From the NCBI GenBank assembly GCA_003598065.1, contig QZKR01000084.1:1365-65364 (forward strand): 64,000 nt of DNA, in the 5' to 3' direction. Positions 7,763 through 64,000 of this stretch are shown here, one piece after another. The notes under the pieces were generated by a model. It saw only the letters and a program-made list of their open reading frames with translations. It had not been told where the DNA came from and made no database searches. This DNA comes from Myxococcales bacterium. Lineage in GTDB: Bacteria > Myxococcota_A > SURF-8. The position numbers and the translations under genes were made by a program. The number at the start of each line of letters is the position of its first letter. Position 1 is the first letter of the stretch.

Positions 7763-7786
7763 GGAAGTCCGGATCCGCCGCGCGGA

Positions 7787-8011
7787 TCAGGCGGCGCGGC
7801 AGGTGATCTGCGCGGCCTCGCGTCGGCAAAGAGAGAGGCGATAGCCGCGCACTTTAAGCTCGATCGGATCGCCCATCGGAGCGACGCGGACGATGGAGAT
7901 GTGCGTGCCGGGCGTCAAGCCGAGTTCCAGGAGGCGGCGACGCAAGCCGTTGCAACCGAGAATTTCAACCAGTTCAGCGCTTTCGCCGGGCTTGAGGGTA
8001 TCCAACGTCAT
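7787..8011 (-). CDS. feoA: Ferrous iron transport protein A
   Basis: RRRLLELGLTPG...APMGDPI; directly upstream of feoB. Confidence 0.93.
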   Translation of the reverse strand: MTLDTLKPGESAELVEILGCNGLRRRLLELGLTPGTHISIVRVAPMGDPIELKVRGYRLSLCRREAAQITCRAA

Positions 8012-8059
8012 GTCCGACTCCGAAGGCCCTTCTTACGCGACACCGTCAAGATTGCCAGA

Positions 8060-8109
8060 AAGGCAACCTTGCCTTAAGTAGACTACTCTAACTGTGTGCG
8101 ACTTGTCAA
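8060..8109 (-). promoter_or_regulatory. feoAB promoter with candidate metal-responsive operator(s)
   Basis: Minus strand TTGACA-18-TAGTCT. Palindrome AGTAG-A-CTACT overlaps the -10; a second palindrome AAGGCAA-CC-TTGCCTT lies at 8060-8075. Confidence 0.5.
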
Positions 8110-8189
8110 CTGAAAACGGACGACTCTTTCTACACGCGAGAAAATATAGCATCGGGCGACATGGGCGACGATGACGGAAGGCAGGACGG

Positions 8190-9443
8190 CTATTTTTCGG
8201 CCCAGAGTTGGATGAGGTTGAGCGTGACGCAGACCGCCTGGGCCATCACGCGCGTCGAAATCCACTCCTGCGGACCATGGTAGTTGACGCCGCCGGTGAA
8301 AATGTTGGGCGTCGGCAGCCCTTTGGCGGTGAGCCCGGAACCGTCCGTGCCGCCGCGGATCGGCTCGACGCGCGGTTCGATACCAACCAGTTTGACCGCC
8401 TCGACCAGCCGGTCCATGACTTCCGGCCTGTCCTTCAGCCAGTACGCCATGTTGCGGTAGGTTTCCGTAATCTCTACGGTTACGCCGAGACGGGGTTCCC
8501 GACGACGCAATTCTTCGGCCAATCGACGGATGGCGTCCCCGCGCGCCGTGAGCTTGCCCAGCTCGAAATCGCGAAGAATCAGCGACACTTTCGCCTCGCT
8601 GGCGTTTCCGGAGATCCGCGTCGGATGATAAAAGCCCTGCCGGCCCTCGGTTTTTTCCGGTGATTCGTCGGGCGGCAGGGACTCCACGAAGGCCGCCGCC
8701 CAGCGGATGGCGTTGACCAGTTTGCCCTTCGCCGTGCCGGGGTGAACGGCCACGCCGGCGATGGCGACCGCCGCGCTGTCGGCGGAAAAGGTCTCGCCGT
8801 TGACTTCGCCGGAAAAGCCGCCATCGAGGGTGTAGGCGCAATGCGCGCCGAAGCGTTCCACGTCGAATTTTTCCGCGCCGCGCCCGATCTCTTCATCGGG
8901 TGTAATCGCCACGCGCACGGTAGGGCGGGGCAGGTCGGGATTGGCGTGCAGGTATTCCAACGCCGCGAGGATCTCCGCCACGCCGGCCTTGTCGTCCGCG
9001 CCCAACAGCGTCGTCCCGTCGGCGGTGAGGATGGTGTCGCCCACGCATTGCGTTAGCCAGGGGGACTCCTCGGGACTGATCGTCACCCCGTTCTTGAGCG
9101 CCAGCGTTTCGCCCTGGTAGTTGGCATGGGCGACGGGCGACACGTCCTTCCCCGAGTAGTCGGGCGACGTGTCGATGTGGGCGATCAAGCCGATGACGGG
9201 CGCTCCTTTGCGGTTTCCAGGCAGGGTGGCGAAGAGGTAGCCGTTTTTGTCGATCGCTGCATCGGCGAGACCCCGCTCCGTCAATTTGCGGCGCACGGCT
9301 TCCAGACCTGTCCGCTGCCCCGGTGTCGATGGCCAGGCGGGCGATTTTTCGTCGGACTGGGTGTCGATCCGGGCGAGTTCGACGAACGCGTCCACCAGGC
9401 GGGTGGAACGAAGAATGACGTTCGGATCGTTGAGAGCGCGCAT
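8190..9443 (-). CDS. pepT: Peptidase T (M20B)
   Basis: AHIDT, GADDKAG, PDEEIGRG, HPGTAKGK and IRGGTDG; start moved to ATG 9443 (GAGGAG RBS). Confidence 0.93.
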   Translation of the reverse strand: MRALNDPNVILRSTRLVDAFVELARIDTQSDEKSPAWPSTPGQRTGLEAVRRKLTERGLADAAIDKNGYLFATLPGNRKGAPVIGLIAHIDTSPDYSGKDVSPVAHANYQGETLALKNGVTISPEESPWLTQCVGDTILTADGTTLLGADDKAGVAEILAALEYLHANPDLPRPTVRVAITPDEEIGRGAEKFDVERFGAHCAYTLDGGFSGEVNGETFSADSAAVAIAGVAVHPGTAKGKLVNAIRWAAAFVESLPPDESPEKTEGRQGFYHPTRISGNASEAKVSLILRDFELGKLTARGDAIRRLAEELRRREPRLGVTVEITETYRNMAYWLKDRPEVMDRLVEAVKLVGIEPRVEPIRGGTDGSGLTAKGLPTPNIFTGGVNYHGPQEWISTRVMAQAVCVTLNLIQLWAEK

Positions 9444-51313: not shown

Positions 51314-52957
51314 CTAACCCTTCCTTCCCTGGATAAGCGGCGCGGCGATCAGGCCGCCCAGGCCGGCGAACAGCAGCATCAAGCCCACCAGGCCGGCGAA
51401 ACCGAAGGAATCGCTCGTGTGCACGATGCCGAGCGTGACCGCGCCGGCGCCCGTGAGGATGGCCGCGACGCGCTTCCAGCCTTCGCGGCGGATCGTGGCC
51501 AGGAGCGTCTTGTCGTGCAGCCTGGCATCGACGACGAGCCCGCCTTCCTCGGCGCGCTTGAGGATGCCATGCAGCTGGCTGGGCATGTCGCGGCCCAGGT
51601 CCGTGAGATCCCGCATCACGGTGACGAAATCGACGAACAGCCGCTCGGGCTTGTAGCGCTCGATCACCACGGCCTTGGCGTAGCCGCTGGCCGCCGAAAG
51701 CACGTCGAAGTCCGGGTCCAGTTCGCGGCCGACGCCGTCGAGCGTCACCGCGGCGCGGAAGAGCAGCAGAAGCTGCGGCGGAAGCTGCACGCGGTGGCGC
51801 TGGGCGACGCCGGCGAGCGCCATCATCAATTCGGCGGAATTGATCTCTTTGAGCGGCAGGCCCATCAACGGCTCGATGACCCGCTGCAGATCGCGGGCGA
51901 AGACTTCCGGAGAAACCGGCTCGCGGCTCGTATGGCCGAGACGCAGGTAGTGGCGCGCCAGGGCGCGGAAATCGCGCGACACCAGCGAAATGAAAATCGA
52001 GCCGACCTCCTGCATCAAGCGGTCGTCGAGGCTGCCGGCGACGCCGAAGTCGATGACGCCGAGCTTGTCCGGCCCCATGACCAGCAGGTTGCCGCCGTGC
52101 ACGTCGCCGTGGAAGAGGCCGTGCGTGAACACCATCTTGAAAAAGGTGTCCAGCCCGAGCCGCGCCAGGGTCCGCTTGTCGTAACCTTTCTCGTCGAGCC
52201 GTTTGGCGTCGGAAAGCGGGATGCCGTCCAGGTAGCTCATCGTCAGCACGCTCTTGCCCGTGAACTCCCACGCGACCTCCGGAACAATGACGTGCTCGTC
52301 GCCGGCGAAGTTCTCGGCGAAGCGCTTGATATTCTGGGCTTCGTGGATGAAGTCGAGTTCGGCGCGGATCAGCGAGGCGAATTCCTCGACGATGGCCACC
52401 GGATCGACCACCGTGACCAGGTCGGTATAGTGATCGAGCATGGCGGCGATCATGAAGAGGATCGAGAGATCGGTCTCCACCTGCTTGTCCGCGCCGGGCC
52501 GGCGCACCTTGACCACCATTTCTCGTCCGTCGGGCAGCCTGGCGCGGTGGACCTGGGCGATCGAGGCCGAACCGATGGGCGAAGCGTCGAACCAGTCGAA
52601 AATCTGCTCCGGCGCAAGGTCGAATTCCTTGCGGATCTCGGCGCGGATGTCCTCCACGGGCAGCGGCGCGACCTGGTCCTGCAGCTTGCGGAATTCCTCG
52701 ACGTACTCGCGCGGAATGAGGTCGGGACGGACGGAAAGCATCTGTCCGAGCTTGACGAAAGTGGTTCCCAGTTCCTCGAAAGCCATCCGCAGCCGCACGG
52801 CGTTCGAGAGCTTTTTCGTCCCTTCGCGCGGCGTCTGGAAGGGAATGAGACGGCCGAGGCCGATGTCGTCCATCACGGATTTGAATCCGTGGCTGGCGAA
52901 CACCGCGCCGATGCGTTGCACGCGCTTCAGGTTCTTGAATGTCTGGTTGATCTTCAT
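51314..52957 (-). CDS. AarF/UbiB family atypical kinase
   Basis: FVKLGQMLS, SASIAQVH, VVKVRRP, FHGDVHGGN and DFG; two C-terminal TMs. Confidence 0.92.
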   Translation of the reverse strand: MKINQTFKNLKRVQRIGAVFASHGFKSVMDDIGLGRLIPFQTPREGTKKLSNAVRLRMAFEELGTTFVKLGQMLSVRPDLIPREYVEEFRKLQDQVAPLPVEDIRAEIRKEFDLAPEQIFDWFDASPIGSASIAQVHRARLPDGREMVVKVRRPGADKQVETDLSILFMIAAMLDHYTDLVTVVDPVAIVEEFASLIRAELDFIHEAQNIKRFAENFAGDEHVIVPEVAWEFTGKSVLTMSYLDGIPLSDAKRLDEKGYDKRTLARLGLDTFFKMVFTHGLFHGDVHGGNLLVMGPDKLGVIDFGVAGSLDDRLMQEVGSIFISLVSRDFRALARHYLRLGHTSREPVSPEVFARDLQRVIEPLMGLPLKEINSAELMMALAGVAQRHRVQLPPQLLLLFRAAVTLDGVGRELDPDFDVLSAASGYAKAVVIERYKPERLFVDFVTVMRDLTDLGRDMPSQLHGILKRAEEGGLVVDARLHDKTLLATIRREGWKRVAAILTGAGAVTLGIVHTSDSFGFAGLVGLMLLFAGLGGLIAAPLIQGRKG

Positions 52958-53007: not shown

Positions 53008-53658
53008 TCAATTCAGGAGTCCGAGCCAGTCGCCGAGCATAAAATCCAGACGGCCCACCAAAAGTGAAACGCGCGCCATCACCGTGTAACCGAAGGCCGC
53101 GCCGAACGAGACCATCAGGAACCAGACGCCGACGCGGGCCACGCACCCCGTCGCGCCCTTGTGCTCCCTGGAGAAGAAGAAATAGGTGAGCGCGGAGAGC
53201 ACGCCGGCGACGATGACGACGTTGTTGAGCGAAGCCCAGAGGTCGAACCGTCTCGCCGCGCCTTCGCCCGAGAAGACGACGAGCGGCACGATCGTCGCGG
53301 CGATCTGATGGAGCAGGTTCTCTTTCATGAAGCTGATGAAAAAGATGCCGCTGTAGGTTCCGATGACGAAGCTGATCGCGTAGCGGCTCACCCAGCCGAC
53401 GCCCTTGAACAACCGCAACAGCATCGACAGGCCGAGCAGGGCGGGGATAAGATAGATCCAGCGGCCTTCTTGAAGGTTCGTCACCAGCTTCGGGACGATG
53501 ACGTTCCAGATTTCCATCGTGAACAGATAGCCCGCCGATACGCCGACGAACAGCGCTTCCGTGAATTTGTAGAGCGGGTTGTCCTTATAGAGGAAGGACC
53601 AGATGCCGAGGGTGAGGATGGCGCCGATCCACACGCCGAAATCGTGGCTCAGCTCCAT
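53008..53658 (-). CDS. Conserved hypothetical integral membrane protein
   Basis: About six TMs; SFLYKDNPLYKFTE, YFFFSREH and FGAAFGYTVMAR; overlaps the upstream gene. Confidence 0.85.
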   Translation of the reverse strand: MELSHDFGVWIGAILTLGIWSFLYKDNPLYKFTEALFVGVSAGYLFTMEIWNVIVPKLVTNLQEGRWIYLIPALLGLSMLLRLFKGVGWVSRYAISFVIGTYSGIFFISFMKENLLHQIAATIVPLVVFSGEGAARRFDLWASLNNVVIVAGVLSALTYFFFSREHKGATGCVARVGVWFLMVSFGAAFGYTVMARVSLLVGRLDFMLGDWLGLLN

Positions 53659-54545
53659 CGCGCCCTCCCTTCCTGCCGGCGGGCGCGCCGCTCGCGGAAG
53701 TAGGCGATGTTGCCGATGAGGACGAAGATGAGAATCAGGACGTGCGCGACGGACTGCGCGGGCATGTAGGCCAGCGCCTGCCCGCGGTCGATGCCGAGGC
53801 CCAAGAGCTGCTCGTAGTCCGCGCCGCCCTTCAGCCCGCCCAGGAAGCCCTTGATCTGGCCGGAATTCAGGTAGGGGTAGGTCTCGGCGGCCATGACGGC
53901 CGTGCTCGCCGCGATGACGCGGAAACGGGGGTTGCTCGGTTTGGCGAACATCACCCAGGCCGCGCCGATCGGCGAACCGGCCGGGCCGCCGGCGGCGAAC
54001 TCGCTGACCAGCGCCACCTCCTCGAAATCACGGACCTTGCGCATCAACGGCAGGTCCGCGAGCCGCGAACCGAACATATCGCGCGGGAAGGTCATGTGAA
54101 TGTCGCGGTTCATCCCCTTGACGACGAGCATGAAGCCCGACATGAAGCCCAGATGCGCGTAATCGCGGCCGTAGGCGAGGCGCCGGGTTGCGAACTCCGG
54201 CTCCGCAAGAACTTCGCGCATGGCGTTGTCCATCAGCGGCGGAGCCTGGACCCACAAACCGACGGTGACGATTTTCGCCTGTTTGCGAAACGCGTGGCGG
54301 ATCGACGCCTTGAGCATCGGCTTGATTTCCGGCGAGGTGGCGGGATCGTAGACGCCGGCGAGGATGACGACTTCGCCGGGTTTCAGTTTTTCCATCTCCT
54401 CGAAATACTGCCTGGCGTAATGACCGGGCTTGATCGGGATGGAGAAAGTGAAGAGCAGGGTCGCGGCCACGGCGAAGCCCATCAAGAGAAAAATAATCCG
54501 CCGATCGAGGGCGAAAGGGTTGAAGGGGGAACGCGGCGCGGCCAT
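53649..54545 (-). CDS. Conserved hypothetical protein (TM - alpha/beta domain - TM)
   Basis: ATG 54545 overlaps the previous stop (TGATG); YGRDYAHLGF and YPYLNSGQIKGFLGGLKGGADYE. Confidence 0.85.
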   Translation of the reverse strand: MAAPRSPFNPFALDRRIIFLLMGFAVAATLLFTFSIPIKPGHYARQYFEEMEKLKPGEVVILAGVYDPATSPEIKPMLKASIRHAFRKQAKIVTVGLWVQAPPLMDNAMREVLAEPEFATRRLAYGRDYAHLGFMSGFMLVVKGMNRDIHMTFPRDMFGSRLADLPLMRKVRDFEEVALVSEFAAGGPAGSPIGAAWVMFAKPSNPRFRVIAASTAVMAAETYPYLNSGQIKGFLGGLKGGADYEQLLGLGIDRGQALAYMPAQSVAHVLILIFVLIGNIAYFRERRARRQEGRARWS

Positions 54546-56050
54546 CAGTCGCCTCCCAGGTAGCCGCGCTCCAGGCCGAGGATGATTTTCAGCGCGGTGG
54601 AGATGACGCCCAGGGCGACGCCGATCATGATGGCGCGCTGGCTGGCCATGTTGGGATAGATCATGATCCAGTCGGCGATGTCCGACATCTGCAGCCATTC
54701 CGGCAGCCAGGCGGTGAGCGTGTCGCCCAGCGGAATCTGGCCGAGCATGACGACGAACCCCGCCAGGAGCAGCAGCAGCGCCTCGGGGCTATGGGCGCGA
54801 AAGGCGCGGTAGGCGGCGGACGCGATGAAGAAGGCCAGAAGCGCGAACATCGTCGAAGAGAGGGGAGAATAGACGTTGTCGAAGATCCACTGGAAGGAGC
54901 TGCCCTTCTCCAGCGACGGAAGGTGGAAAGCCGGCTCCAGCCCGCCCGCGCCGAACAGCGAATTGACCGCCGCCGCGAAAGCCGCCGGCGCCATCTCGCC
55001 GCGCTCGACATGACGCAACGCCAGTTCGGCGACGGCGCGTCCCAACAAGCTCATTTCTCCCTCTAGCGGCGAAAATAACCCTTCCGCCGCGTTCCGGCTT
55101 GCGAAAGCGCGAACCGCTTCGACCGGCGTCAGCGCGGCGTCCGGATCATTGATCCTCGCCGCCTCGACCGCCGCGCGGGCGTTCTTGACGCCGCGCTCGA
55201 CAAGCGCCGGCAAGACGATTTCGCCCGCGCCTTCCAGGTCGATCGGTTCGCCGAAAAGTTCGACGCGGCCCGAGAGCAGCGGCGCGGCCGCCTCGCGCGC
55301 CGCAGGAAGCAGGGAGCGCGGATCGACGCCATCGGGAACGTTGACGGCCTCCGCCAATGCCGCCGCAAAGACGCCGTTATCCGCGAGCAGGTCGAGCAGG
55401 TTCGTCGCATAGTCCTCCACGGCCCGCGCCGCCGGCAGCACGCCGCGCACGAGGCGGTCCGCCTCGGCTTCGGTTTTTGCGGCGAGACGGTCGAACCGCT
55501 GGCGATCGACGCCGGATGTGGCGAAGAGACGCGCAAACGGCTCCTCGCGGATGCGGCCCCGCCGCACGAGGGATTCCACGTCGGCCGGATCGGCGCGATG
55601 GCGGGCGAAAAACGATTCCTCCAGCGCCAGGTCAGGGTTGCGCGTTTTGGCGATCAGGGCGGCGGCCAGATCCGCCGTCTCTTCCGGCAGGCCGTCGCGG
55701 CGGGCCGCGTCCTCGGCGATCGTTCGCACCAGCCGGCTGTTGTCGGCGAGAAGTCTGCCGGCGAGCGCCCGATCTTCGCCGGGGTTGAAGAGGCCGGCGA
55801 AGACGGTGGCGGCGAACGCCAGGACGGTGACGGCGGCGTAACCCCAGCCGGCCTGCCGCCGCGCCGCCTTGCGGATGTTCGAATAGAAGAGGCTTAGAAG
55901 CCCGAGAATCATGGTGAAGACGATGACGATCAGCGCGAAGTCGTTCAGGATCTGATCGAGCGTGTTGATCGGCGGATGGGGGATGAACGCCTGGAGAATA
56001 AGAAACACGCCCATGACGGCGGTGATCAGCAGCGGCAGTTCGCGTTTCAT
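54545..56050 (-). CDS. Hypothetical membrane protein with large soluble insertion
   Basis: Three N-terminal TMs, about 290-aa helical region, then PLSSTMFALLAFFIASAAYRAFR and further TMs. Confidence 0.85.
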   Translation of the reverse strand: MKRELPLLITAVMGVFLILQAFIPHPPINTLDQILNDFALIVIVFTMILGLLSLFYSNIRKAARRQAGWGYAAVTVLAFAATVFAGLFNPGEDRALAGRLLADNSRLVRTIAEDAARRDGLPEETADLAAALIAKTRNPDLALEESFFARHRADPADVESLVRRGRIREEPFARLFATSGVDRQRFDRLAAKTEAEADRLVRGVLPAARAVEDYATNLLDLLADNGVFAAALAEAVNVPDGVDPRSLLPAAREAAAPLLSGRVELFGEPIDLEGAGEIVLPALVERGVKNARAAVEAARINDPDAALTPVEAVRAFASRNAAEGLFSPLEGEMSLLGRAVAELALRHVERGEMAPAAFAAAVNSLFGAGGLEPAFHLPSLEKGSSFQWIFDNVYSPLSSTMFALLAFFIASAAYRAFRAHSPEALLLLLAGFVVMLGQIPLGDTLTAWLPEWLQMSDIADWIMIYPNMASQRAIMIGVALGVISTALKIILGLERGYLGGD

Positions 56051-56057
56051 GCCCGCT

Positions 56058-57332
56058 TTAGTCCATTACCGTAAAGAGGCTGCGCACGGCGTCCGTCCAC
56101 TCCGGATGGCCGGCGATCTGGCCCGCCGTCGCCGCCAGAATCCCGAAAATGAGCGCCGCCGCCGCCGTCAGCTTGCCGTAGTCCTGGCCCTTCAAGCTGC
56201 CCAGGAGGCGCGGTTCCTTGGAGAGATAGGCCGAGGCGGCGAACAATTCTTCGCCGATCAGCGTGTAATCGCAGGCGGCGATGAAGAACGGCAGTTGAGC
56301 CACCGCCGCCGTGCCGGCGATCTGGATGGCGCCGACGCCATGGCCCGTTTCGGCGAGGAGCAGCGATTCGGCGAAGAACGCGCCCTGATAGAAGATCGCC
56401 GCCGGACGGTCGCGCAGCATCAAGCCGCCCACGGCGGCGGCGTAACCGAACTGGTCGTCGGTGATGTAGTGGACGATTTCCTCGCGGTAGTCTTCCGGGC
56501 GGCCGCTGGCCAGAAACGCCTCTCGCACCGCTTCGCGGCCGGCGACCATCACCATCGAGCGAGCCGTCGGCACGTCGATTTCGGACTGCTGCGTCGCGGC
56601 GACGCGCGCCACACGGCCCAGGATCGTCAGGCCGGCGATCGTCTGCGGGTCGTCCACGTCCATGATGCCGGGGACGAAGAGAATCTTTTTGCCCATTTCC
56701 GATGCCCGGCCCACGGCCTCGTCGATGGCGTCCAGGCTGCGAATGCGGCGGATGAACAACGGCCGGCCCTGCGCCGCGAGCCGGATGAAAGCGATGATGA
56801 GCCCCGAGATGACGATCGCCGCGATGAAGAGGTTGAGCCGGCCCAGGTTGAACCAGCTTGCCGGCGCGAAGACCGGCCCGACGACCGGCGTATCCCGGTA
56901 TTGTTCGCCGCGATAGACGCGGACGAAAAAATACGCCCGCCGGGGGCCGATCGCATGGCGGAGCGTCGTGTCGCGCAACGGGAGCAGGCTTTCGACGGGC
57001 TCGAAATCTTCGAGGACGGGCGTTCGGCCCTCCACGGCGGCCCGCCAAAGCTCGGCGCGCTCGATTTTCCTTCCCGCTTCGCCCTCCGGCCAGTAAAGGT
57101 TCACCACGACATCGCCGCCGGAGTCGCTGGGCTGATCGGTCACAACCAAACCCGGGAAGGGCAATTCCTCCAGACTCGGCGGCGGCGCAAAGAGGCGCAG
57201 CAGCTCGTCGATCAGCGCCGCTTCGGGAACGGGCGGCTCCTCCATCCCCTGAGCGAGGGCGGCGGAAGCGGCCGCCGCCAGCGCGACCGCCGTCATCCCC
57301 ATTCGAAGCCATCTGGTCGGACGAATGCGCAC
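56058..57332 (-). CDS. DUF6754-type domain protein
   Basis: Signal peptide, beta-rich domain, TM, then IRRIRSLDAIDEAVGRASEMG..QLPFFIAACDYTLIGEELFAASAYLS. Confidence 0.8.
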   Translation of the reverse strand: MRIRPTRWLRMGMTAVALAAAASAALAQGMEEPPVPEAALIDELLRLFAPPPSLEELPFPGLVVTDQPSDSGGDVVVNLYWPEGEAGRKIERAELWRAAVEGRTPVLEDFEPVESLLPLRDTTLRHAIGPRRAYFFVRVYRGEQYRDTPVVGPVFAPASWFNLGRLNLFIAAIVISGLIIAFIRLAAQGRPLFIRRIRSLDAIDEAVGRASEMGKKILFVPGIMDVDDPQTIAGLTILGRVARVAATQQSEIDVPTARSMVMVAGREAVREAFLASGRPEDYREEIVHYITDDQFGYAAAVGGLMLRDRPAAIFYQGAFFAESLLLAETGHGVGAIQIAGTAAVAQLPFFIAACDYTLIGEELFAASAYLSKEPRLLGSLKGQDYGKLTAAAALIFGILAATAGQIAGHPEWTDAVRSLFTVMD

Positions 57333-57500
57333 TCAAGCCCCTTCGACGATCTCGACGTCGGCGCGCGGCGCGGCGACCTCCCGGCCGCGAAAAATCCGCC
57401 GGTGCTCGTCGCCGACTTTCTCGAAAAGCATGGCCTTCGTCGTGGCGCCGCCGCAATCGGTGGCCACAATCACCGCGATGTCGTCCGGCTTCGGAGGCAT
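57333..57500 (-). pseudogene. Truncated GlmL/MutL-like (ASKHA, actin-fold) ATPase remnant, 55 aa
   Basis: VIVATDCGGATTKAMLFEK resembles the GlmL N-terminal DxGSTTTK phosphate-1 motif, but the ORF stops after 55 codons. Confidence 0.7.
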
Positions 57501-57529
57501 CTCCCCTCGCGTATTCGCTAAGCGCCCGG

Positions 57530-57559
57530 AAACTATCATTTAGGGGAAGAACGAGTCAA
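57530..57559 (-). promoter_or_regulatory. Candidate promoter of glmL-stub/DUF6754 operon
   Basis: Minus strand TTGACT-18-TAGTTT with extended -10 TG. Confidence 0.5.
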
Positions 57560-57585
57560 ACTTATTCGGGGCATTCTCCGGACTT

Positions 57586-57618
57586 GAAACGAAAACGGCC
57601 CGGCGGATCGCCGGGCCG
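57586..57618 (-). terminator. Intrinsic terminator
   Basis: CGGCCCGGCG/CGCCGGGCCG stem followed on the minus strand by TTTTCGTTTC. Confidence 0.7.
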
Positions 57619-57641
57619 CGGAATCGCTGGCGAGCGAATGG

Positions 57642-58307
57642 CTACTCCATTTCAAGAGCCGTTTCACCACGGATTTTTTTTGCGGCGTTTTTTTTGGCGG
57701 AAGCGTCGAGAAGTTCGTTGACGGACGGCCCTTTCAGCTTCGTCCATTCCCGTTCGAAGCGTTCGCGAGCCGAGATCGTCGCCAGATGTTTGGACGCGAG
57801 GTCGTTCAGGTCGGCGATTTCGCCCTTGACCTGGCAGCCGAAGCGCATGGTGATCGCCTCGTCCACCAGCGTTGCGACTTCTTTAGTAGGAAAGCCCTTC
57901 TTTTCCTCGACGAGCAGGAGATAGTTCACCGCCTCGCTTTTACGCGACGGAACGAGCTTATACCAGATGGCGACAAGGCCGACATGAGCGCGGGTGCCAT
58001 GCTGAACGATTTTCGCGATTTCCCTGTGAACCAGACGCTCCTGCTCGAAGATCGGGCGCAGCAGTTCCCAAACCACCTTGTGCTCGCGATTGAGCGTGTA
58101 GGAGTAAGCGCGACCGACGGCTTTGCGGAACAAGGCCTTGTTTTTGACGAGGCTGTCCAGACTCAACTGGCAGGAGCGGGGCGATATGCCCGCCGTGGCG
58201 GCGATGCGCCGGCCCGTCATGGCGTCGTCGGACTCGAACAGCACGCGGAGAATTTCCACTTTCGAGGTCGTGCCCAGCAGGTAATTGAGTATACGACTTT
58301 GTTTCAT
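57642..58307 (-). CDS. Winged-helix protein with degenerate nucleotidyltransferase-like C-terminal domain
   Basis: LLGTTSKVEILRVL..MTGRRIA..YSYTLNREH wHTH; the C-terminus lacks the GS..DxD motif. Confidence 0.7.
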   Translation of the reverse strand: MKQSRILNYLLGTTSKVEILRVLFESDDAMTGRRIAATAGISPRSCQLSLDSLVKNKALFRKAVGRAYSYTLNREHKVVWELLRPIFEQERLVHREIAKIVQHGTRAHVGLVAIWYKLVPSRKSEAVNYLLLVEEKKGFPTKEVATLVDEAITMRFGCQVKGEIADLNDLASKHLATISARERFEREWTKLKGPSVNELLDASAKKNAAKKIRGETALEME

Positions 58308-58532
58308 CGGTCGGCCTCGCAAAAGCGTTTTACGACAAATGACAACTTTGTCACTTGTGTTCCCCAGTAAACTGATTTGGACTTCCTGCGCATCTGCTGA
58401 CACAACTGTTAACAAAAAGGGCTACACTTGTCCAGAGGAAAACACCATCCGGCGAAAAAAATCCCCGTGACCGCTATAGGGTAAATACTTATATATTTCG
58501 CGGTGTTGCGCTGATGGATAGGATCGCGGTAA

Positions 58533-59936
58533 TCAGCCGGTGGTTTCGCGGCGCTTCCGGAGATGTTGTTTGGCCACGGTCGAGAGAATGATCGCCGCGC
58601 CCAGACCGGCAGGAATGAGCATATAAGGCAGCTTGCCGAACAGGGCGAAGACGAAAATCATGAAGATGAAGAAATCACGCTTGGCTACATACTTCAATGC
58701 GGCCATGAAACGCACGACAAATCGGTTGTCCTGCAGACTGTCGGACTTGTTGAACTCGTAATCGATGGCCATGACGTCGCCGCTCTTGGTGTATAGGATG
58801 ATGTAAGAGTACATCAGCGGCGTGATGACGGCGTAACAGGCGAGAGTGAGCACGCCTAAAACCCATAGCCACCCCGGTTCCGCCCTGCCTTGGAAGATCG
58901 CGTAGGTGAGCGCGGCGAAAAACGAGAAATTGCTGATGTCGTCGATCACCGTGTCGATCCATTCGCCGTACTTGGAGAATTGATATTTGAGCCGCGCCAG
59001 CTCGCCGTCCACGCCATCGACGATCGAGGCGAATTGAAACAAGGCCGCGCCCAGCAGCATCCACCAGTACCCGCCGTGCGTCACCATCCAGACGGCGACG
59101 AAGGCGAACAGCAGCGTCGAAGCCGAGGCCATGTTGGGCGTGACGGGCGTATTGGCCAGATAACGCGAAATGGGGATCGAAATGTTGCGGTTGATGGTGC
59201 GGCTGATGACGCCGTCGATGGGCTTGCGTAGAGCGTTCAGCAATCGCTTTTCGGCGTCGGCGATGTCGGCCCGGCGGCCCACGGCCAACCCCCATGAGGA
59301 ATCGACGGTCGTCCATTCCACGCCGCCGGCCTGAGCGGCCTGATCCAGCGCGTCGATCAGTCGGCCCCCGGATTCCTGGAGGCGCGTCAGCAAGCCTTTG
59401 GAAATCAACCCCGCTCCCTCGAAAGGCCGGCGAACGCCTTTCGGCAGCCGCACCCGCCAGCGTTCGTCCTCCTGATAGGTTTCGGCGGCTTCCCAGCGGC
59501 TGCTGGTTGGGGCTATGGCCAGGCGCGCCTCGACTTCCAGCGGCTTGGCGGCCAACGCCTTCAGGTACGCGGCCGGCGACACCCAGTCGCTGCGACAGAT
59601 GAAAGCCGGCCCGGACAAAGCGGCGGCGGCGCGCATCAGAGCCGTTTCGGCCGGCAAGGTTCCGCCGTAGAAATGGAACGTGGTTCGGTGGGTGATGCGA
59701 AAGTCGCTTTTCACCGCCGCCTCTGCCGCGCGCCAACGCTCCGGGAGCACGACAACGGAATTCTGGACGCCCGCGTCCTGCAACTGACGCAGCGTGCGGA
59801 CGATGAGCGGCGCGCCAAGCAGCCTGAAAAGAGGATCGACCGAGGCCTCGGGAGTTTCCGGTGGAAGCGCGAAGGCGATCTCGGGCGCCGTCACCAGCGC
59901 CTCGCCGATCGACGTGGCCAGTTCGGGAGTAGTCAT
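58533..59936 (-). CDS. CDP-alcohol phosphotransferase (DIPPS-like) fused to degenerate NTP-transferase domain
   Basis: DGVISRTINR, TPN and DGVDGELAR..GEWIDTVID; the N-terminal domain lacks the GxG motif. Confidence 0.85.
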   Translation of the reverse strand: MTTPELATSIGEALVTAPEIAFALPPETPEASVDPLFRLLGAPLIVRTLRQLQDAGVQNSVVVLPERWRAAEAAVKSDFRITHRTTFHFYGGTLPAETALMRAAAALSGPAFICRSDWVSPAAYLKALAAKPLEVEARLAIAPTSSRWEAAETYQEDERWRVRLPKGVRRPFEGAGLISKGLLTRLQESGGRLIDALDQAAQAGGVEWTTVDSSWGLAVGRRADIADAEKRLLNALRKPIDGVISRTINRNISIPISRYLANTPVTPNMASASTLLFAFVAVWMVTHGGYWWMLLGAALFQFASIVDGVDGELARLKYQFSKYGEWIDTVIDDISNFSFFAALTYAIFQGRAEPGWLWVLGVLTLACYAVITPLMYSYIILYTKSGDVMAIDYEFNKSDSLQDNRFVVRFMAALKYVAKRDFFIFMIFVFALFGKLPYMLIPAGLGAAIILSTVAKQHLRKRRETTG

Positions 59937-59954: not shown

Positions 59955-60716
59955 TCAGTCGGGAAAGCGAATCAGGCCTTTGTCGAGCATCATCTCGGCG
60001 TGGCGCAGGGTCTCGACCGTGTCGGCGTCCTGCCACAGGGCCGCGCCGACGTCGAAATATCCGAAGCGGCCGGCCTCGCCCAGGCGGCGCATGCCGTCGG
60101 AAAGCGAGCAGTCGCCTTTTTCCGCAAAAGCCGCCGACAGCGTGCCGAAAATTTCGGGCAGGCAGGAGAAAAGCCCGATATCGACGGCGTTGTAGTCGGT
60201 CAGATTCTTGCCGATGGCGACAATCCGTTCGCCCTCCGTTTTGACCTTCGTTGCGTCGTCGAGGTCGAACACCTGATCGATTTTGCGGTCGATGCAGAGG
60301 CGGACGGCCATGTCGCGGGGACCCTCGGCCACGAGCGACGCCACGATGCCGAGGTCGAAGGCGTGGTCGGACATGGACAGCAAGAAAGGCTCCTCCACGA
60401 GCGGTTCGGCGGCGAGCGCCGAGACGCCATTGGCCAGATCGTCCCATCGCGGGTTGTAAATTGTATCGACCTTGATTTTCAGCTGCGGACCCAGCATGTG
60501 GACGAGGGTTTCAACGCGCTCCCGCAGATAGCCGGTGACGACCACGACGCGGCGGATGCCAGCCTTGGCCAGCGTGCGGATGACGCGGGCGATCATCGGC
60601 TGGCCTTTCAGGGGGATCAACGGCTTGGAAATCGGCGCGCCGTCCACGGAGAGAGACTGAATACGGCTGCCCCAGCCGGCCGCGAGAATCACCGCCGCTT
60701 CGCACCTCGCCGCCAT
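59955..60716 (-). CDS. IPCT-like (inositol-1-phosphate) cytidylyltransferase
   Basis: AVILAAGWGSR, NGVS, MSDH, DDATKV, IGKNL..VDIGLF and WQDADT. Confidence 0.8.
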   Translation of the reverse strand: MAARCEAAVILAAGWGSRIQSLSVDGAPISKPLIPLKGQPMIARVIRTLAKAGIRRVVVVTGYLRERVETLVHMLGPQLKIKVDTIYNPRWDDLANGVSALAAEPLVEEPFLLSMSDHAFDLGIVASLVAEGPRDMAVRLCIDRKIDQVFDLDDATKVKTEGERIVAIGKNLTDYNAVDIGLFSCLPEIFGTLSAAFAEKGDCSLSDGMRRLGEAGRFGYFDVGAALWQDADTVETLRHAEMMLDKGLIRFPD

Positions 60717-60810
60717 GCGCACCTCCTTCGCCGTTTGCCGATGGTGTCCCCCGGGCGTGGCCCTTCATTAGCGGGCGGGGGACGGTTTGTCAAGATTCCG
60801 CCGGCCTACC

Positions 60811-63800
60811 TCATTCGTCTCCGACGCAAAGAGTCCAGGCGTAATTGTTTTTGGCCAGTTTCTGCAGCTTTCCTTCTCCGAAATCGACCGTGAGCGCCAT
60901 ATCGGGCTGAAGCGGATAGGAGGTGGAAGACCAGTAGACTTCTTCGAACAGCGGATCGATCACTTCACTGTGGGCGGCCGGCCACTGGCGCGCGTAATCG
61001 ACGAGCGAATGCAGTTCCTTGATGTTCGGCAGCCGCCATTGCGTATATCCGCCGTGCTGGCTCTGTTCGCAATCGGCCAAGGCGAATTCCCAGGTCGTCG
61101 TGTACGGCGTGGCCGTCGCGCCGCTTTGCCACTTCAGGCCAGTGTAGTTGTCCACCGTCCAGTAAGTTGACTTCGTGTAGCGCTCGGCCGGGTGGCCCGG
61201 CTGATAGAACATGTTGCGCACGCAGCGGACGTGCAAAGCTATTGTGGCGTTGGCCGGCTCGACGAGAATCTCTCCGAAATGGACGTTCCATGCCATGGTC
61301 TCGCCGGTTGTGATGAAGCGCTGGCTGGACCAGAACGGCGTCAATGTCGATGTCCCGGGAAAGTACGTAGTTTCGACGAACGGCGAATTGCCTTTGATGC
61401 TCAGAAGCGATACGAGTTCCGTGACCGTCGGAATGCGCCAGTCGTCGAAGCCGGCGTACTGGAGACCATCGCAGTACAGAATCGCCTCGGTCCATGAACA
61501 TGTCCCCGGAGACGTGTTGATGCAGCCCGTAGGCGCTTCGGGAAGTTCTCCTTGCCAGGCTAGACCGGTTGTTTCGTCGTAGACGACCTTTTCCGGGGAC
61601 TGGCGTTGCGCGTATCGGAGGGGAGCGGAGCTGTACTGCGCGTCCTGGCCGCAGCCGGAATTCTGATAGCAAGCGGCCTGCTCAGGGGAACTTGGGCAGT
61701 GCATCCAGTCGGAAGGCACGGTGGCCCGATAACATTCCTCCTGGCCGGTGTCGGGGAGGAAGCCGCAGGATCCTGCGCATGTCGAGCAGGCGATGGGGTC
61801 GGTGTAAGGGACGAAATACTGGCCCCCGACGCAGCCACAGGTAGCGGTGTCGTCGAAGCGTTCGTAACAGGCGTCCGCGCCATTGGGGATGCACGGATCC
61901 GGGTCACAAGGGTCCTGCGTGCAGGTGGCGCCGTCGGCGGAGAAATGCCAGCCGTCGGCGGCGTCGCAAAGGCAGTCGGCGCTGCCGGCGGCGTTGTCGC
62001 ACACCTCGTGGTTGGCGGCGTTGCAGGGATCGGGGTCGCAGGGGTCCTGCGTGCAGGTGAGGCCGTCGCTGGACAAGTGCCAGCCGTCGGCGGCGTCGCA
62101 GACGCATTCGGCTACACCGAGGTTGTTCTGGCAGATTTCATGATTGCCGGGATCGCAGGGGTCGGGATCGCAGGGATCCTGGGTGCAAGTAACGCCATTG
62201 CTCGACAGATGCCAGCCGTCGGCGGCGTCGCAGACGCACTCGGCGGCGCCGCCGTTGTCCTGACAGACTTCATGGTTGCTGTCGTTGCACGGGTCCGGGT
62301 CGCAGGGATCCTGCGTGCAGGTGACGCCGTCGGCGGAGAGATGCCAGCCATCGGCGGCGTCGCAGAGGCATTCGAAGCCGGCGACCGGCAAGGGACTGCA
62401 CACTTCATGGTTGCCGGCGTCGCAGGGATCGGGGTCGCAGGGATCCTGCGTGCAGGTGACGCCGTCGCCGGACAGATGCCAGCCGCCGGCGGCGTCGCAG
62501 ATGCAGTCGGCCGCGCCGCCGCCGTTGTCGCAGACCTCGTGGTTCGCGTCGTTGCACGGATTGGGGTCGCAGGGATCGTCGGTGCAGGTGACGCCGTCGC
62601 CGGACAAATGCCAGCCGTTGGCCCCGTCGCAAACGCAGACGGCGTTCCCGGTGGTGTTTTCGCAGACCTCGTGGTTCCGGTCAGTGCAGGGGTTGGGATC
62701 GCAAGGATCGTTGGTGCAGGTGACGCCGTCGCCGCCGAGGTGGTAGCCGGCCGCCGCGTTGCAGGCGCAGGCGCCATTCTCGCAAACCTCGCTGATGGCA
62801 TCGCAGGGGTCGGGGTCGCAGGGGTCCTGCGTGCAGGTGACACGGTCGCTCGACAGGTGCCAGCCGCCGGCGGCGTCGCAGACGCACTCGGCCGCGCCGA
62901 GGTTGTTCTGGCAGATTTCATGATTGCCGGAATCGCAGGGGTTGGGGTCGCAAGGGTCCTGCGTGCAGGTTTCGCCGTCGCCGGCCAAGTGCCAGCCTTC
63001 GGCGGCATCGCAGTCGCAAGCCGCGGTCGTGCTGTCGGTGTTCGCGTTGCACACTTTGTGGTTGGCTGCGTCGCAAGGGTTCGGGTCGCAGGGATCCGTG
63101 GTGCAGGTTTTCCCATCGCCGGAGAGATGCCAGCCGTTGGCGGCGTCGCAGAGGCATTGCGGCGTGTCGGCCGTGTCCGAAACCTTGCAGATCTCGTGAT
63201 TGTCCGGATCGCAGGGGTTGGGATCGCAAAGGTCGGTGGTGCAGGTCTGGCCGTCGCCGCCGCGATGATAACCGGCGGCTGCGTCGCAATTGCAAAGCGC
63301 CGCGTCGGGCGCGTCCGCCGTCGGGTCCGGTTCGCAGATTTCGTGATTGGCGGCGTCACAGGGGTCCGGGTCGCACGGGTCCGTGGTGCAGGTTTGGCCG
63401 TCGCCAGCGAGATGATAGCCGTTGTCCTTGTCGCAGACGCACTGGCCGTCCACGCAAATCTCGAAGTTTTCGGCGTCGCAATCGACTTCAAAGCAGGGAT
63501 CGCGGACGCAGGTCTCGCCGTCCTTGTCGCGTGTGTAGCCGTGGATTGCGTCGCAGACGCATTCCCCTTCCAGACAGACCTCGTGATTGTCGGCGTCGCA
63601 TTCGCCGGGCGCGCAGGTTTTATCGCCGCAGGACTCACGGCAGATGCTGACGCCGCGCTCAGGTTCCTGGCAGCACAGCCTGCCCGGGTCGCAGGCGTCG
63701 TCGCCTTCACAGGATCGGGCCTCCACGACCATGAGCGCCATGGAGGGGTCGTAATCGTCCAGCGACATGGACTCGTTGTATTCCAGTTCATCGCAGGCCA

Positions 63801-64000
63801 AAGACAGCGGCTGGTCGGCGACGGCGACGGAGACGGCGTAGCTGCCCACCTCTTCCAGCAGCAGATCCCAGGCCATGCCGCTGGAATGCCAGGCGCGGTC
63901 GGTGTCCAGGTTATGGGCGCGCCAGCAGAAGGCGAGGGAATCGTTTTCCTGGTCCAGGCTGCCATGGGCGCTCAGATGGACGGTGTTGCCGGCCGCCGTG
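60811..64000 (-). CDS. Giant Cys-rich EGF-repeat protein with two C-terminal DUF1566 (Lcl-type) domains; 5' end outside window
   Basis: Frame is open to the window end (PKD-like TVHLSAHGSLDQENDSLAFCW); DTGQ, DETTGLAWQ..DWRIPTVTEL and DNYTGLKWQ..WRLPNIKEL. Confidence 0.85.
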   Translation of the reverse strand, partial: TAAGNTVHLSAHGSLDQENDSLAFCWRAHNLDTDRAWHSSGMAWDLLLEEVGSYAVSVAVADQPLSLACDELEYNESMSLDDYDPSMALMVVEARSCEGDDACDPGRLCCQEPERGVSICRESCGDKTCAPGECDADNHEVCLEGECVCDAIHGYTRDKDGETCVRDPCFEVDCDAENFEICVDGQCVCDKDNGYHLAGDGQTCTTDPCDPDPCDAANHEICEPDPTADAPDAALCNCDAAAGYHRGGDGQTCTTDLCDPNPCDPDNHEICKVSDTADTPQCLCDAANGWHLSGDGKTCTTDPCDPNPCDAANHKVCNANTDSTTAACDCDAAEGWHLAGDGETCTQDPCDPNPCDSGNHEICQNNLGAAECVCDAAGGWHLSSDRVTCTQDPCDPDPCDAISEVCENGACACNAAAGYHLGGDGVTCTNDPCDPNPCTDRNHEVCENTTGNAVCVCDGANGWHLSGDGVTCTDDPCDPNPCNDANHEVCDNGGGAADCICDAAGGWHLSGDGVTCTQDPCDPDPCDAGNHEVCSPLPVAGFECLCDAADGWHLSADGVTCTQDPCDPDPCNDSNHEVCQDNGGAAECVCDAADGWHLSSNGVTCTQDPCDPDPCDPGNHEICQNNLGVAECVCDAADGWHLSSDGLTCTQDPCDPDPCNAANHEVCDNAAGSADCLCDAADGWHFSADGATCTQDPCDPDPCIPNGADACYERFDDTATCGCVGGQYFVPYTDPIACSTCAGSCGFLPDTGQEECYRATVPSDWMHCPSSPEQAACYQNSGCGQDAQYSSAPLRYAQRQSPEKVVYDETTGLAWQGELPEAPTGCINTSPGTCSWTEAILYCDGLQYAGFDDWRIPTVTELVSLLSIKGNSPFVETTYFPGTSTLTPFWSSQRFITTGETMAWNVHFGEILVEPANATIALHVRCVRNMFYQPGHPAERYTKSTYWTVDNYTGLKWQSGATATPYTTTWEFALADCEQSQHGGYTQWRLPNIKELHSLVDYARQWPAAHSEVIDPLFEEVYWSSTSYPLQPDMALTVDFGEGKLQKLAKNNYAWTLCVGDE
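61810..63615 (-). repeat. Coding tandem repeat: 13 full plus 1 degenerate 6-Cys units of about 39-49 aa
   Basis: Consensus DPCDPxPCxxxNHEVC...CxCDAAxGWHLSxDGxTCTQ, counted in the translation. Confidence 0.9.

Follow-up and report, generated by a model that had tools for sequence, protein, structure and literature searches.

In a 64,000-nucleotide (nt) stretch of DNA from a Myxococcales bacterium (contig QZKR01000084.1, positions 1,365 to 65,364; this whole stretch is called the window here), five co-oriented open reading frames (ORFs) on the minus strand, spanning 53008-57539 in the ORF list, raise the question of why a very short cistron that begins like an ATPase stands in front of four membrane protein genes, the first of which carries the domain of unknown function DUF6754. 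The sequence-only reading of this locus had taken the five, here called g0 to g4, for an operon encoding a multi-subunit membrane complex that normally works with a GlmL-like ATPase or kinase. Our analysis indicates that the window holds an ATPase-less copy of a larger system, and that the genes of the ATPase and of a second protein, here called BSH378, were lost from it by a deletion of ~2.8 kb. That the locus represents, in degenerate form, a six-gene system that is widespread and uncharacterised, and that this system works by the mechanism proposed below, we regard as rather probable.

The evidence for the deletion lies in the first cistron itself. g0 is listed at 57333-57539 on the minus strand and more likely occupies 57333-57500, with an ATG at 57500 behind a GGGGAG ribosome-binding site. 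Its N-terminal ~39 residues match the N-terminus of GlmL-like ASKHA ATPases and include VATDCGGATTKA, so that the ASKHA phosphate-1-like motif previously recognised in the first cistron is indeed there; aligned with residues 8-60 of the full-length GlmL-like protein of a related locus (L033), g0 shows 56.6% identity (E 5e-11). The last ~16 residues, GREVAAPRADVEIVEGA followed by the stop codon, align instead with C-terminal ends of BSH378 proteins, of which GEEAMIPRANVEIIEG is one, with local scores of 40-53 as compared with 20-25 against GlmL N-termini, and at the DNA level, too, g0 can be aligned with the end of the BSH378 gene of L033. Because the start of the ORF matches the N-terminus of one protein and its tail the C-terminus of the other, g0 is, by these alignments, a 55-codon in-frame chimera of ~39 GlmL-like and ~16 BSH378 residues, that is, a deletion scar. 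The deletion would begin near codon 47 of the ATPase gene and stop 16 codons short of the end of the partner gene, a span of 2,828 nt by arithmetic in L033 coordinates, and the scar retains the promoter region, the ribosome-binding site and the stop-start coupling to g1. What presumably stood at this position can be read from L033 and L002, the two closest genomes with an orthologous module (both Myxococcota metagenome-assembled genomes, with a g1 57-59% identical to that of the window): in both, a full-length GlmL-like gene of the PF13941 family is followed by a gene for the 378-amino-acid BSH378 and then by g1-g4. Outside g0, the window genome, a 5.4 Mb draft of 183 contigs that is 94.55% complete with 5.02% contamination, gave no match to PF13941, to the L033 BSH378 protein or to the BSH378 profile.

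The first cistron had been regarded as a member of a five-cistron operon, and if this operon were complete, g0 would be a functional GlmL-like or otherwise ASKHA-derived subunit. The ORF is open and is equipped with a ribosome-binding site, a promoter-like site and the phosphate-1-like motif, as a functional gene would be. However, 55 residues are too few for an ASKHA fold, the PF13941 model being 450 positions long, neither Pfam nor NCBIfam has a match for g0 (taken as 55-68 amino acids), and its C-terminal third comes from a different protein. Short forms are also missing from the other loci in which the upstream gene lies fully within the fetched sequence; in every one of them the GlmL-like gene is of full length, about 600-630 amino acids. 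A functional g0 is therefore scarcely credible, and g0 drops out of the list of operon members, to which BSH378, the sixth member of the system, overlooked in the sequence-only reading and likewise deleted in the window, has to be added.

The missing 2.8 kb might also be an artefact of assembly or binning, or a minority strain variant, in which case the organism would have the complete six-gene cluster. The draft state of the genome, with its many contigs and its levels of completeness and contamination, is compatible with such an error, as are the absence of any sign of decay in the four membrane genes and the retention of BSH378 in all 17 other DUF6754-positive genomes sampled. But the junction lies inside a contig, where a clean ORF ends exactly at the natural stop of the partner gene and keeps the coupling to g1. 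Assemblers collapse repeats, but none is evident here, only a Gly-Glu/Arg dipeptide being shared at the joint, and no second fragment of either gene was found on any other contig. Since the joint is clean, in frame and inside a contig, we consider an artefact quite unlikely. A metagenome scan for close relatives of the window g1 returned none above 62% identity. We return to a genuine deletion, and to the genes that it left behind. The window g1-g4, which are 48-77% identical to their orthologues in L033 and L002, retain every invariant column of the family alignments and diverge no faster than these orthologues when compared with two outgroups, and thus the loss of the ATPase pair here is either recent or tolerated.

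The two lost proteins can be described from the relatives. In relatives the GlmL-like protein is about 610-630 amino acids long. That of L033 (628 amino acids) scores 410 bits against PF13941 (cut-off 27) and stays below the curated NCBIfam cut-offs for GlmL, Or-4 and the GlmL subfamily, namely those of NF040745 (213 vs 475 bits), NF040744 (205 vs 600) and TIGR01319 (152 vs 204). It retains the sequences DCGSTTTK, DIGGATTD and GSGGVLSH, which we take to be the ASKHA motifs. The glutamate mutase E gene (PF06368) had no match anywhere in the window genome, so that, for this subunit, the absence of a mutase gene noticed at first for the window extends to the whole of this 94.55%-complete assembly. 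Judged by sequence, the ATPase is a separate branch of the PF13941 superfamily and not a glutamate mutase helper. BSH378 shows weak matches to barrel-sandwich-hybrid families (in L033, RnfC_N at 20.6 bits, with a cut-off of 25.6), and its distant fused homologues pass the curated cut-offs (NQRA_N, 26.8 vs 25 bits; RnfC_N, 26.5 vs 25.6); it has no NCBIfam match and no PDB sequence match. Wherever a locus was seen to contain both, the ATPase and BSH378 genes are neighbours, and 72 of the 74 longer BSH378 homologues (E <= 1e-10) carry PF13941 in precomputed annotation, as fusions of ~960-1060 amino acids; all four GlmL-BSH378 fusions checked by Pfam scan were confirmed. One distant GlmL-BSH fusion (P0174, 1023 amino acids) has a Cro/C1-type HTH_3 domain at its N-terminus.

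To describe the membrane genes we relied on a neighbourhood survey of 87 loci, of which 33 come from species-representative genomes and 54 from metagenomes, with 101 copies of DUF6754. That the four membrane genes form a conserved unit, as had been proposed from the window, was confirmed: among the 65 copies with at least 3.3 kb of sequence downstream, g1 is followed by g2, g3 and g4 in this order in 62, and the three exceptions are two solo DUF6754 genes (L003 and L004) and one locus with a merely split g3 match (L111). The solo genes (L003, 7938-9125, the same place as G009 C24; L004, ~7866-9125, the same place as G006 C2) are 53% identical to the window g1 and have no g2-g4 nearby, while the same genomes hold a complete module elsewhere. 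Another unusual form, encoded in L055 (7379-10534, minus strand; genome G012), is a DUF6754 protein of 1051 amino acids with ~680 additional N-terminal residues in comparison with the window g1, presumably extracellular. Zixibacteria and Ignavibacteria loci carry two to three modules in tandem. DUF6754 occurs here in Myxococcota, Zixibacteria, Ignavibacteria and Marinimicrobia, to which the source names add Latescibacteria and Verrucomicrobia, and the ESM Atlas clusters of BSH378 and g3, all of them unnamed, reach Planctomycetota, Chloroflexota and Bathyarchaeota.

The association of this module with the ATPase pair, which had been suggested as its normal partner on the strength of the first cistron, was evident both in gene order and in phyletic distribution. 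Where at least 3.8 kb of upstream sequence was available (61 copies), BSH378 lies directly before g1 in 42, with the GlmL-like gene before BSH378 where the contig reaches; in 12 the copy follows another module, in four the pair is encoded divergently upstream, two are the solo genes and one has nothing there. Of 120 further genomes sampled evenly across the phylum, 17 have DUF6754; the BSH378 profile matched in the same 17 and in none of the remaining 103, and the window genome is the only one sampled with DUF6754 and no BSH378. Likewise, 11 of the 20 nearest relatives have DUF6754, BSH378 and PF13941 together, and the remaining nine have none of the three. The two genomes with a solo gene, G006 and G009, each have two DUF6754 genes (one in a full module, one solo) and one pair. 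In one Ignavibacteria locus (L005), a BSH378 gene (6706-7830) directly precedes two tandem modules, with no GlmL-like match within 6.7 kb upstream. Two kinds of apparent BSH378-DUF6754 fusion were examined and set aside. The long open frames at some Myxococcota matches are not fusions, the genes being in different frames, and P0163 (707 amino acids, a single-member record), in which BSH378 runs into positions 2-128 of the 257 of the DUF6754 profile, is doubtful and could be a rare fusion or a sequencing or gene-calling error.

The first gene of the module, g1 (56058-57332, minus strand, 424 amino acids), matches DUF6754 (PF20539) over residues 158-404 with 374.7 bits (cut-off 27; E 2.3e-112). 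It has a signal peptide, a periplasmic FN3 domain, a transmembrane (TM) helix, a cytoplasmic Rossmann-type DUF6754 domain and a C-terminal TM helix; in the hydropathy profile the two TM helices flank a hydrophilic domain of 146 residues. The FN3 part matches solved FN3 domains in the structure model search and is missing from the Marinimicrobia copies. The alignment of g1 has 55 invariant columns across 19 sequences. Within the module, conservation is highest in this cytoplasmic domain of g1, with 37 invariant columns in 136 sequences, and the invariant acidic and polar residues include E212, T291, Q294, E322, E328, C354, D355, E361, E362 and D384. A first model of full-length g1, built from 19 sequences, was poor in the conserved core (predicted local distance difference test, pLDDT, 67), and Foldseek found only FN3 with it. 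The core modelled alone from 136 sequences was confident (pLDDT 92.1, predicted template-modelling score 0.85) and appears as a six-stranded Rossmann-type alpha/beta domain between two long helices, which agrees, for g1, with the TM-anchored alpha/beta domains expected from the sequence. Foldseek gave no PDB match for this core at E <= 0.001. When the Foldseek list was re-examined, the archaeal Sir2Af2 came out on top (Z 11.2-12.0, root-mean-square deviation 3.4-3.6 A over 139-142 residues), the best alignment having Z 12.0, 3.4 A, 139 residues and 13% identity, and the next matches included the epsilon subunit of carbon monoxide dehydrogenase (CODH; Z 9.1-9.7) and domain III (dIII) of transhydrogenase (Z 9.2). 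In a structure search against all representatives, many Rossmann folds were tied at Z 9-10. We take the Sir2 match of the model as a lead to a dinucleotide-binding type of fold, and as nothing more.

These matches bear on a different view of the complete system, as a membrane-bound enzyme or assembly complex for an envelope or lipid component, in which the GlmL-like protein would be an ATP-dependent activase, reactivase or kinase and the DUF6754 domain would hold the cofactor or substrate site. ASKHA proteins of the GlmL type and of the diol-dehydratase-reactivase type are thought to act as activases, reactivases or kinases, and those relatives of the ATPase that have been characterised (NF040745, NF040744) are all accessory to enzymes. 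The best structural matches of the modelled g1 core are dinucleotide-binding proteins (Sir2Af2, CODH epsilon, transhydrogenase dIII), and its invariant acidic and polar residues form a pattern that resembles a catalytic or ligand site more than it does a docking surface. In addition, lipid-metabolism genes flank the cluster in two phyla, a diacylglycerol (DAG)-kinase-like gene and CdsA in Marinimicrobia, and a CDP-alcohol phosphatidyltransferase and an ABC1 kinase here. These neighbours give only a weak lead, however, as flanking genes are not conserved: among 119 flank proteins at 22 related loci no Pfam family occurred more than twice, a count based on the 25 commonest families. Moreover, a cofactor-binding motif was not recognised, the similarity of fold is modest and would not by itself reveal a function, and a cytoplasmic enzyme would leave two polytopic subunits and a large periplasmic domain unexplained. 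We regard this enzyme as a serious rival to the energised membrane machine that we favour, though on the whole an unlikely one.

Downstream of g1 the cistrons are as tightly packed and co-oriented as the sequence-only reading had them, which both the ORF list and the junctions read from the sequence confirm. The stop codon TGA of g0 abuts the GTG of g1 directly; a 412-amino-acid database record (P0001) implies an alternative g1 start at Met13, which would leave a gap of 36 nt between g0 and g1. The TAA of g1 is separated by 7 nt from the ATG of g2 (54545-56050, minus strand, 501 amino acids), g2 and g3 overlap as TGATG, and g3 and g4 (53008-53658, minus strand, 216 amino acids) overlap by 10 nt. 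The start of g3 (53649-54545, minus strand, 298 amino acids) is set at MAAPRS, where its homologues start, while the ORF list extends it to 54698. Hydropathy and alignments indicate that g2 and the small g4 are polytopic, as predicted for two of the subunits. g2 has five TM regions over the hydropathy threshold, and g4 has three; in both, further sub-threshold hydrophobic stretches are visible by eye, and invariant charged residues lie in or beside the hydrophobic segments. The conserved TM blocks of g2 are found at its N-terminus (~1-90) and C-terminus (~385-501), split by an insertion of ~290 amino acids that is present only in Myxococcota copies and missing from the 16 non-Myxococcota alignment rows. 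The g4 alignment has 32 invariant columns and the conserved motifs YKDNPxYK and FFSKEHxG. In g3, hydropathy indicates a TM helix, a hydrophilic domain of ~217 residues, a second TM helix and a basic C-terminal tail. The positive-inside rule, used to place the domains of membrane proteins, predicts that the hydrophilic domain is periplasmic. The g3 sequence is present in the ESM Atlas, where its structural neighbours are all unnamed clusters. In profile-profile comparison there is no detectable relation among g1, g2, g3 and g4: g1 against g3 gives a probability of 0.7%, and the g2/g4 and g1/g4 matches obtained with hhalign cover only 18-22 columns in a gap-rich C-terminal region and were taken as artefacts.

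The periplasmic parts of g1 and g3 would also suit a surface receptor or signalling complex, in which the FN3 and g3 domains sense an envelope or external cue and the DUF6754 domain reports it to the cytoplasm. The FN3 ectodomain fits this explanation, as does the variation of the periplasmic parts between lineages while the cytoplasmic part stays constant; a winged helix-turn-helix (wHTH)-like gene adjoins the cluster in the family of the window, and the distant fused homologue P0174 has its HTH_3 domain. But Marinimicrobia copies dispense with the FN3 domain altogether, the proteins scanned contain no kinase, cyclase, receiver or other signalling domain, and tandem triplicates of whole four-gene modules would be unusual for sensors, which makes a receptor very unlikely.

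We thus favour a six-protein machine, made of a PF13941 ASKHA (actin/Hsp70-fold) ATPase, its obligate partner BSH378 and the four-subunit inner-membrane module g1-g4. In the complete system, the ATPase and BSH378 would form a cytoplasmic energising or processing unit. This unit would dock on the cytoplasmic part of g1, which is highly conserved, and would power a cycle of conformational change or transport in the membrane core of g2 and g4; from there the cycle would be relayed to the g3 domain and to FN3 of g1 in the periplasm. Thus the pair probably acts through the cytoplasmic domain of g1, with its output on the periplasmic side via g3 and FN3, and one pair would serve one to three paralogous membrane modules. 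In the window, an in-frame deletion of ~2.8 kb took almost all of the ATPase and partner genes and left the 55-codon chimeric ORF in front of g1-g4, which are intact and still able to be transcribed. The orphan module may be a recently orphaned, non-functional leftover, or it may work without ATP coupling.

Several observations weigh against this proposal. The proposed mechanism is drawn from architecture and co-occurrence. No ABC, P-type, Nqr/Rnf or secretion-system family was found in g1-g4 or in the L033 copies except g1, and because no such transporter or secretion family matched, there is no positive model for an ASKHA ATPase that drives a membrane complex. The Sir2 match of g1 is only ~2 Z units above generic Rossmann folds, and no obvious glycine-rich nucleotide loop can be read from the alignment of this domain. 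Complex prediction for BSH378 with the g1 core, both of L033, scored 0.00, a score from which nothing follows about binding. Coupling in cis is not universal, as shown by the solo DUF6754 genes of L003 and L004 and by five relatives in which the pair and the module are at separate genome sites. Many of the loci surveyed are closely related Marinimicrobia, so that the neighbourhood counts overstate the independent support. The deletion is read from the assembled contig, and a second copy of the pair may lie in unassembled DNA, given the completeness and contamination of the genome. Finally, the intact g1-g4 fit continued ATPase-free function as well as they fit recent loss.

A bolder proposal goes further, namely that the ATPase, BSH378 and the DUF6754 module are an undescribed class of ATP-coupled inner-membrane machine, driven by an actin/Hsp70-fold protein rather than by an ABC, AAA+ or P-type ATPase and spread over many, mostly uncultured phyla, and that the window genome is a natural ATPase knock-out whose intact module implies an activity of its own. 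We hold this to be possible, with some doubt prevailing.

The signals and genes around the module complete the description of the locus. A candidate promoter and a terminator-like hairpin are present where the sequence-only reading had placed them, both as consensus matches only. The promoter candidate (57532-57559, minus strand), upstream of the ATG of the remnant ORF, is sigma-70-like (TTGACT-16-GATAGT, 9 of 12 hexamer positions). The hairpin (57595-57619, minus strand), which lies 3′ of the upstream wHTH-like gene, has an 11-pair stem with 10 G-C pairs and a T-rich tail. Promoter-like sites in the region number 3 as compared with 0.7 +/- 0.9 in shuffled sequences; terminator-like sites are not above chance (6 vs 4.6 +/- 2.3). 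Past g4, the gene of an ABC1/UbiB-type atypical kinase (51314-52957, minus strand) begins after 50 nt, and as no terminator-like site was found in this gap, it may be co-transcribed with g1-g4; in the other loci examined it does not adjoin the module. On the other side of the locus, the wHTH-like gene (57642-58307, minus strand) is a candidate local regulator that lies outside the conserved six-gene set. Its product has no Pfam family, is 54.7% identical to the 214-amino-acid protein encoded upstream of GlmL in L033, and weakly matches the PADLOC family PDC-M05A (E 2e-5, residues 1-88). In two genomes of the same family, L033 and G001, this gene is found directly upstream of the GlmL-like gene, as it is upstream of g0 in the window. 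Around it (57500-59000), G+C drops to 0.54-0.55, compared with 0.62-0.69 in the flanks.

Farther upstream, a 467-amino-acid protein (58533-59936, minus strand) has a CDP-alcohol phosphatidyltransferase domain and an N-terminal part that weakly resembles an NTP-transferase, and a separate NTP-transferase gene (59955-60722, minus strand) stands beside it. This architecture is reminiscent of cytidylyltransferase/CDP-alcohol transferase fusions for the synthesis of polar lipids or solutes. The next ORF (60811-63876, minus strand, 1021 amino acids) has about a dozen cysteine-rich repeats of the type ...GWHLSGDGVTCTQDPCDPNPC... and a different C-terminal region, and looks like a large secreted or surface repeat protein. 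In Marinimicrobia, genes for a DAG-kinase-like protein (YegS-type) and for CdsA (CDP-diglyceride synthase) were observed directly upstream of the GlmL-like gene in L016 (3126-4705) and L013 (136-2039); in L016 the CdsA gene and the start of the GlmL-like gene share 4 nt.

DUF6754 proteins form a very large family, as all 8000 candidates scored in one homologue search were significant (E <= 0.001), and we found no component of the system with an assigned function, a solved structure or a paper. If the proposal is true, a membrane process would be energised here in a new way, by an ASKHA-fold ATPase coupled to a dedicated membrane complex, and the routine annotation 'glutamate mutase L' that database sources give to these ATPases would have to be corrected. 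What the window adds is a natural and clean loss of the ATPase pair in front of intact membrane genes, and with it a testable prediction on the dependence of the module on the pair. It also carries a warning for annotation, since a short 'GlmL-like' ORF at a locus of this kind may be the scar of a deletion.

The expectation that the four proteins would match no characterised complex was borne out in Pfam, NCBIfam, PADLOC and PDB sequence searches. Except for DUF6754, no Pfam family passed its cut-off in g1-g4, and no NCBIfam model did. The PADLOC-DB 2.0 defence families gave no match (E <= 0.01) with g1-g4, the L033 GlmL-like protein or BSH378. PDB sequence searches, run with profiles for g1-g4 and BSH378 and with a single GlmL-like sequence, returned only chance-level rows, or FN3 in the case of g1. 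In a full-text literature search, which left supplementary files aside, there was no paper on DUF6754 (PF20539) or on GlmL-like PF13941 proteins. The Pfam entry of DUF6754 describes a domain of unknown function, and the g2-g3-g4 partners and the ATPase pair are mentioned in no family description found.

Comparison with known systems is therefore one of parts. The ATPase of the system and the N-terminus of g0 belong to the same ASKHA superfamily as GlmL/MutL and the Or-4 ornithine-degradation protein (PF13941); the ATPase differs from GlmL/MutL in carrying ~130 extra C-terminal residues and in never being beside a mutase in the loci examined, where BSH378 is its neighbour or is fused to it. At its N-terminus BSH378 is a barrel-sandwich hybrid, as NqrA and RnfC are, and BSH378 too is a soluble protein encoded beside polytopic membrane subunits. 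NqrA and RnfC are peripheral cytoplasmic subunits that sit on the polytopic subunits of the Na+-NQR and Rnf complexes, but no NqrB-F or RnfA/D/E/G family matches g1-g4, and the system has no flavin, Fe-S or NADH-binding domain. The modelled cytoplasmic domain of g1 is of the Rossmann type, as are Sir2, transhydrogenase dIII and CODH epsilon, which are grouped as the 'DHS-like NAD/FAD-binding' fold class. It differs from Sir2 in lacking the zinc module and in standing between two TM helices; a tether to a membrane domain is also found in transhydrogenase dIII. Energy-coupling factor (ECF) and ATP-binding cassette (ABC)-type transporters use shared energising modules. No ABC_tran (PF00005), permease or ECF T/S family was found in g1-g4 or in the L033 copies except g1 (E <= 0.01), and the ATPase of the present system has an ASKHA fold, but the occurrence of one ATPase unit per genome beside one to three paralogous membrane modules makes these transporters our working analogy.

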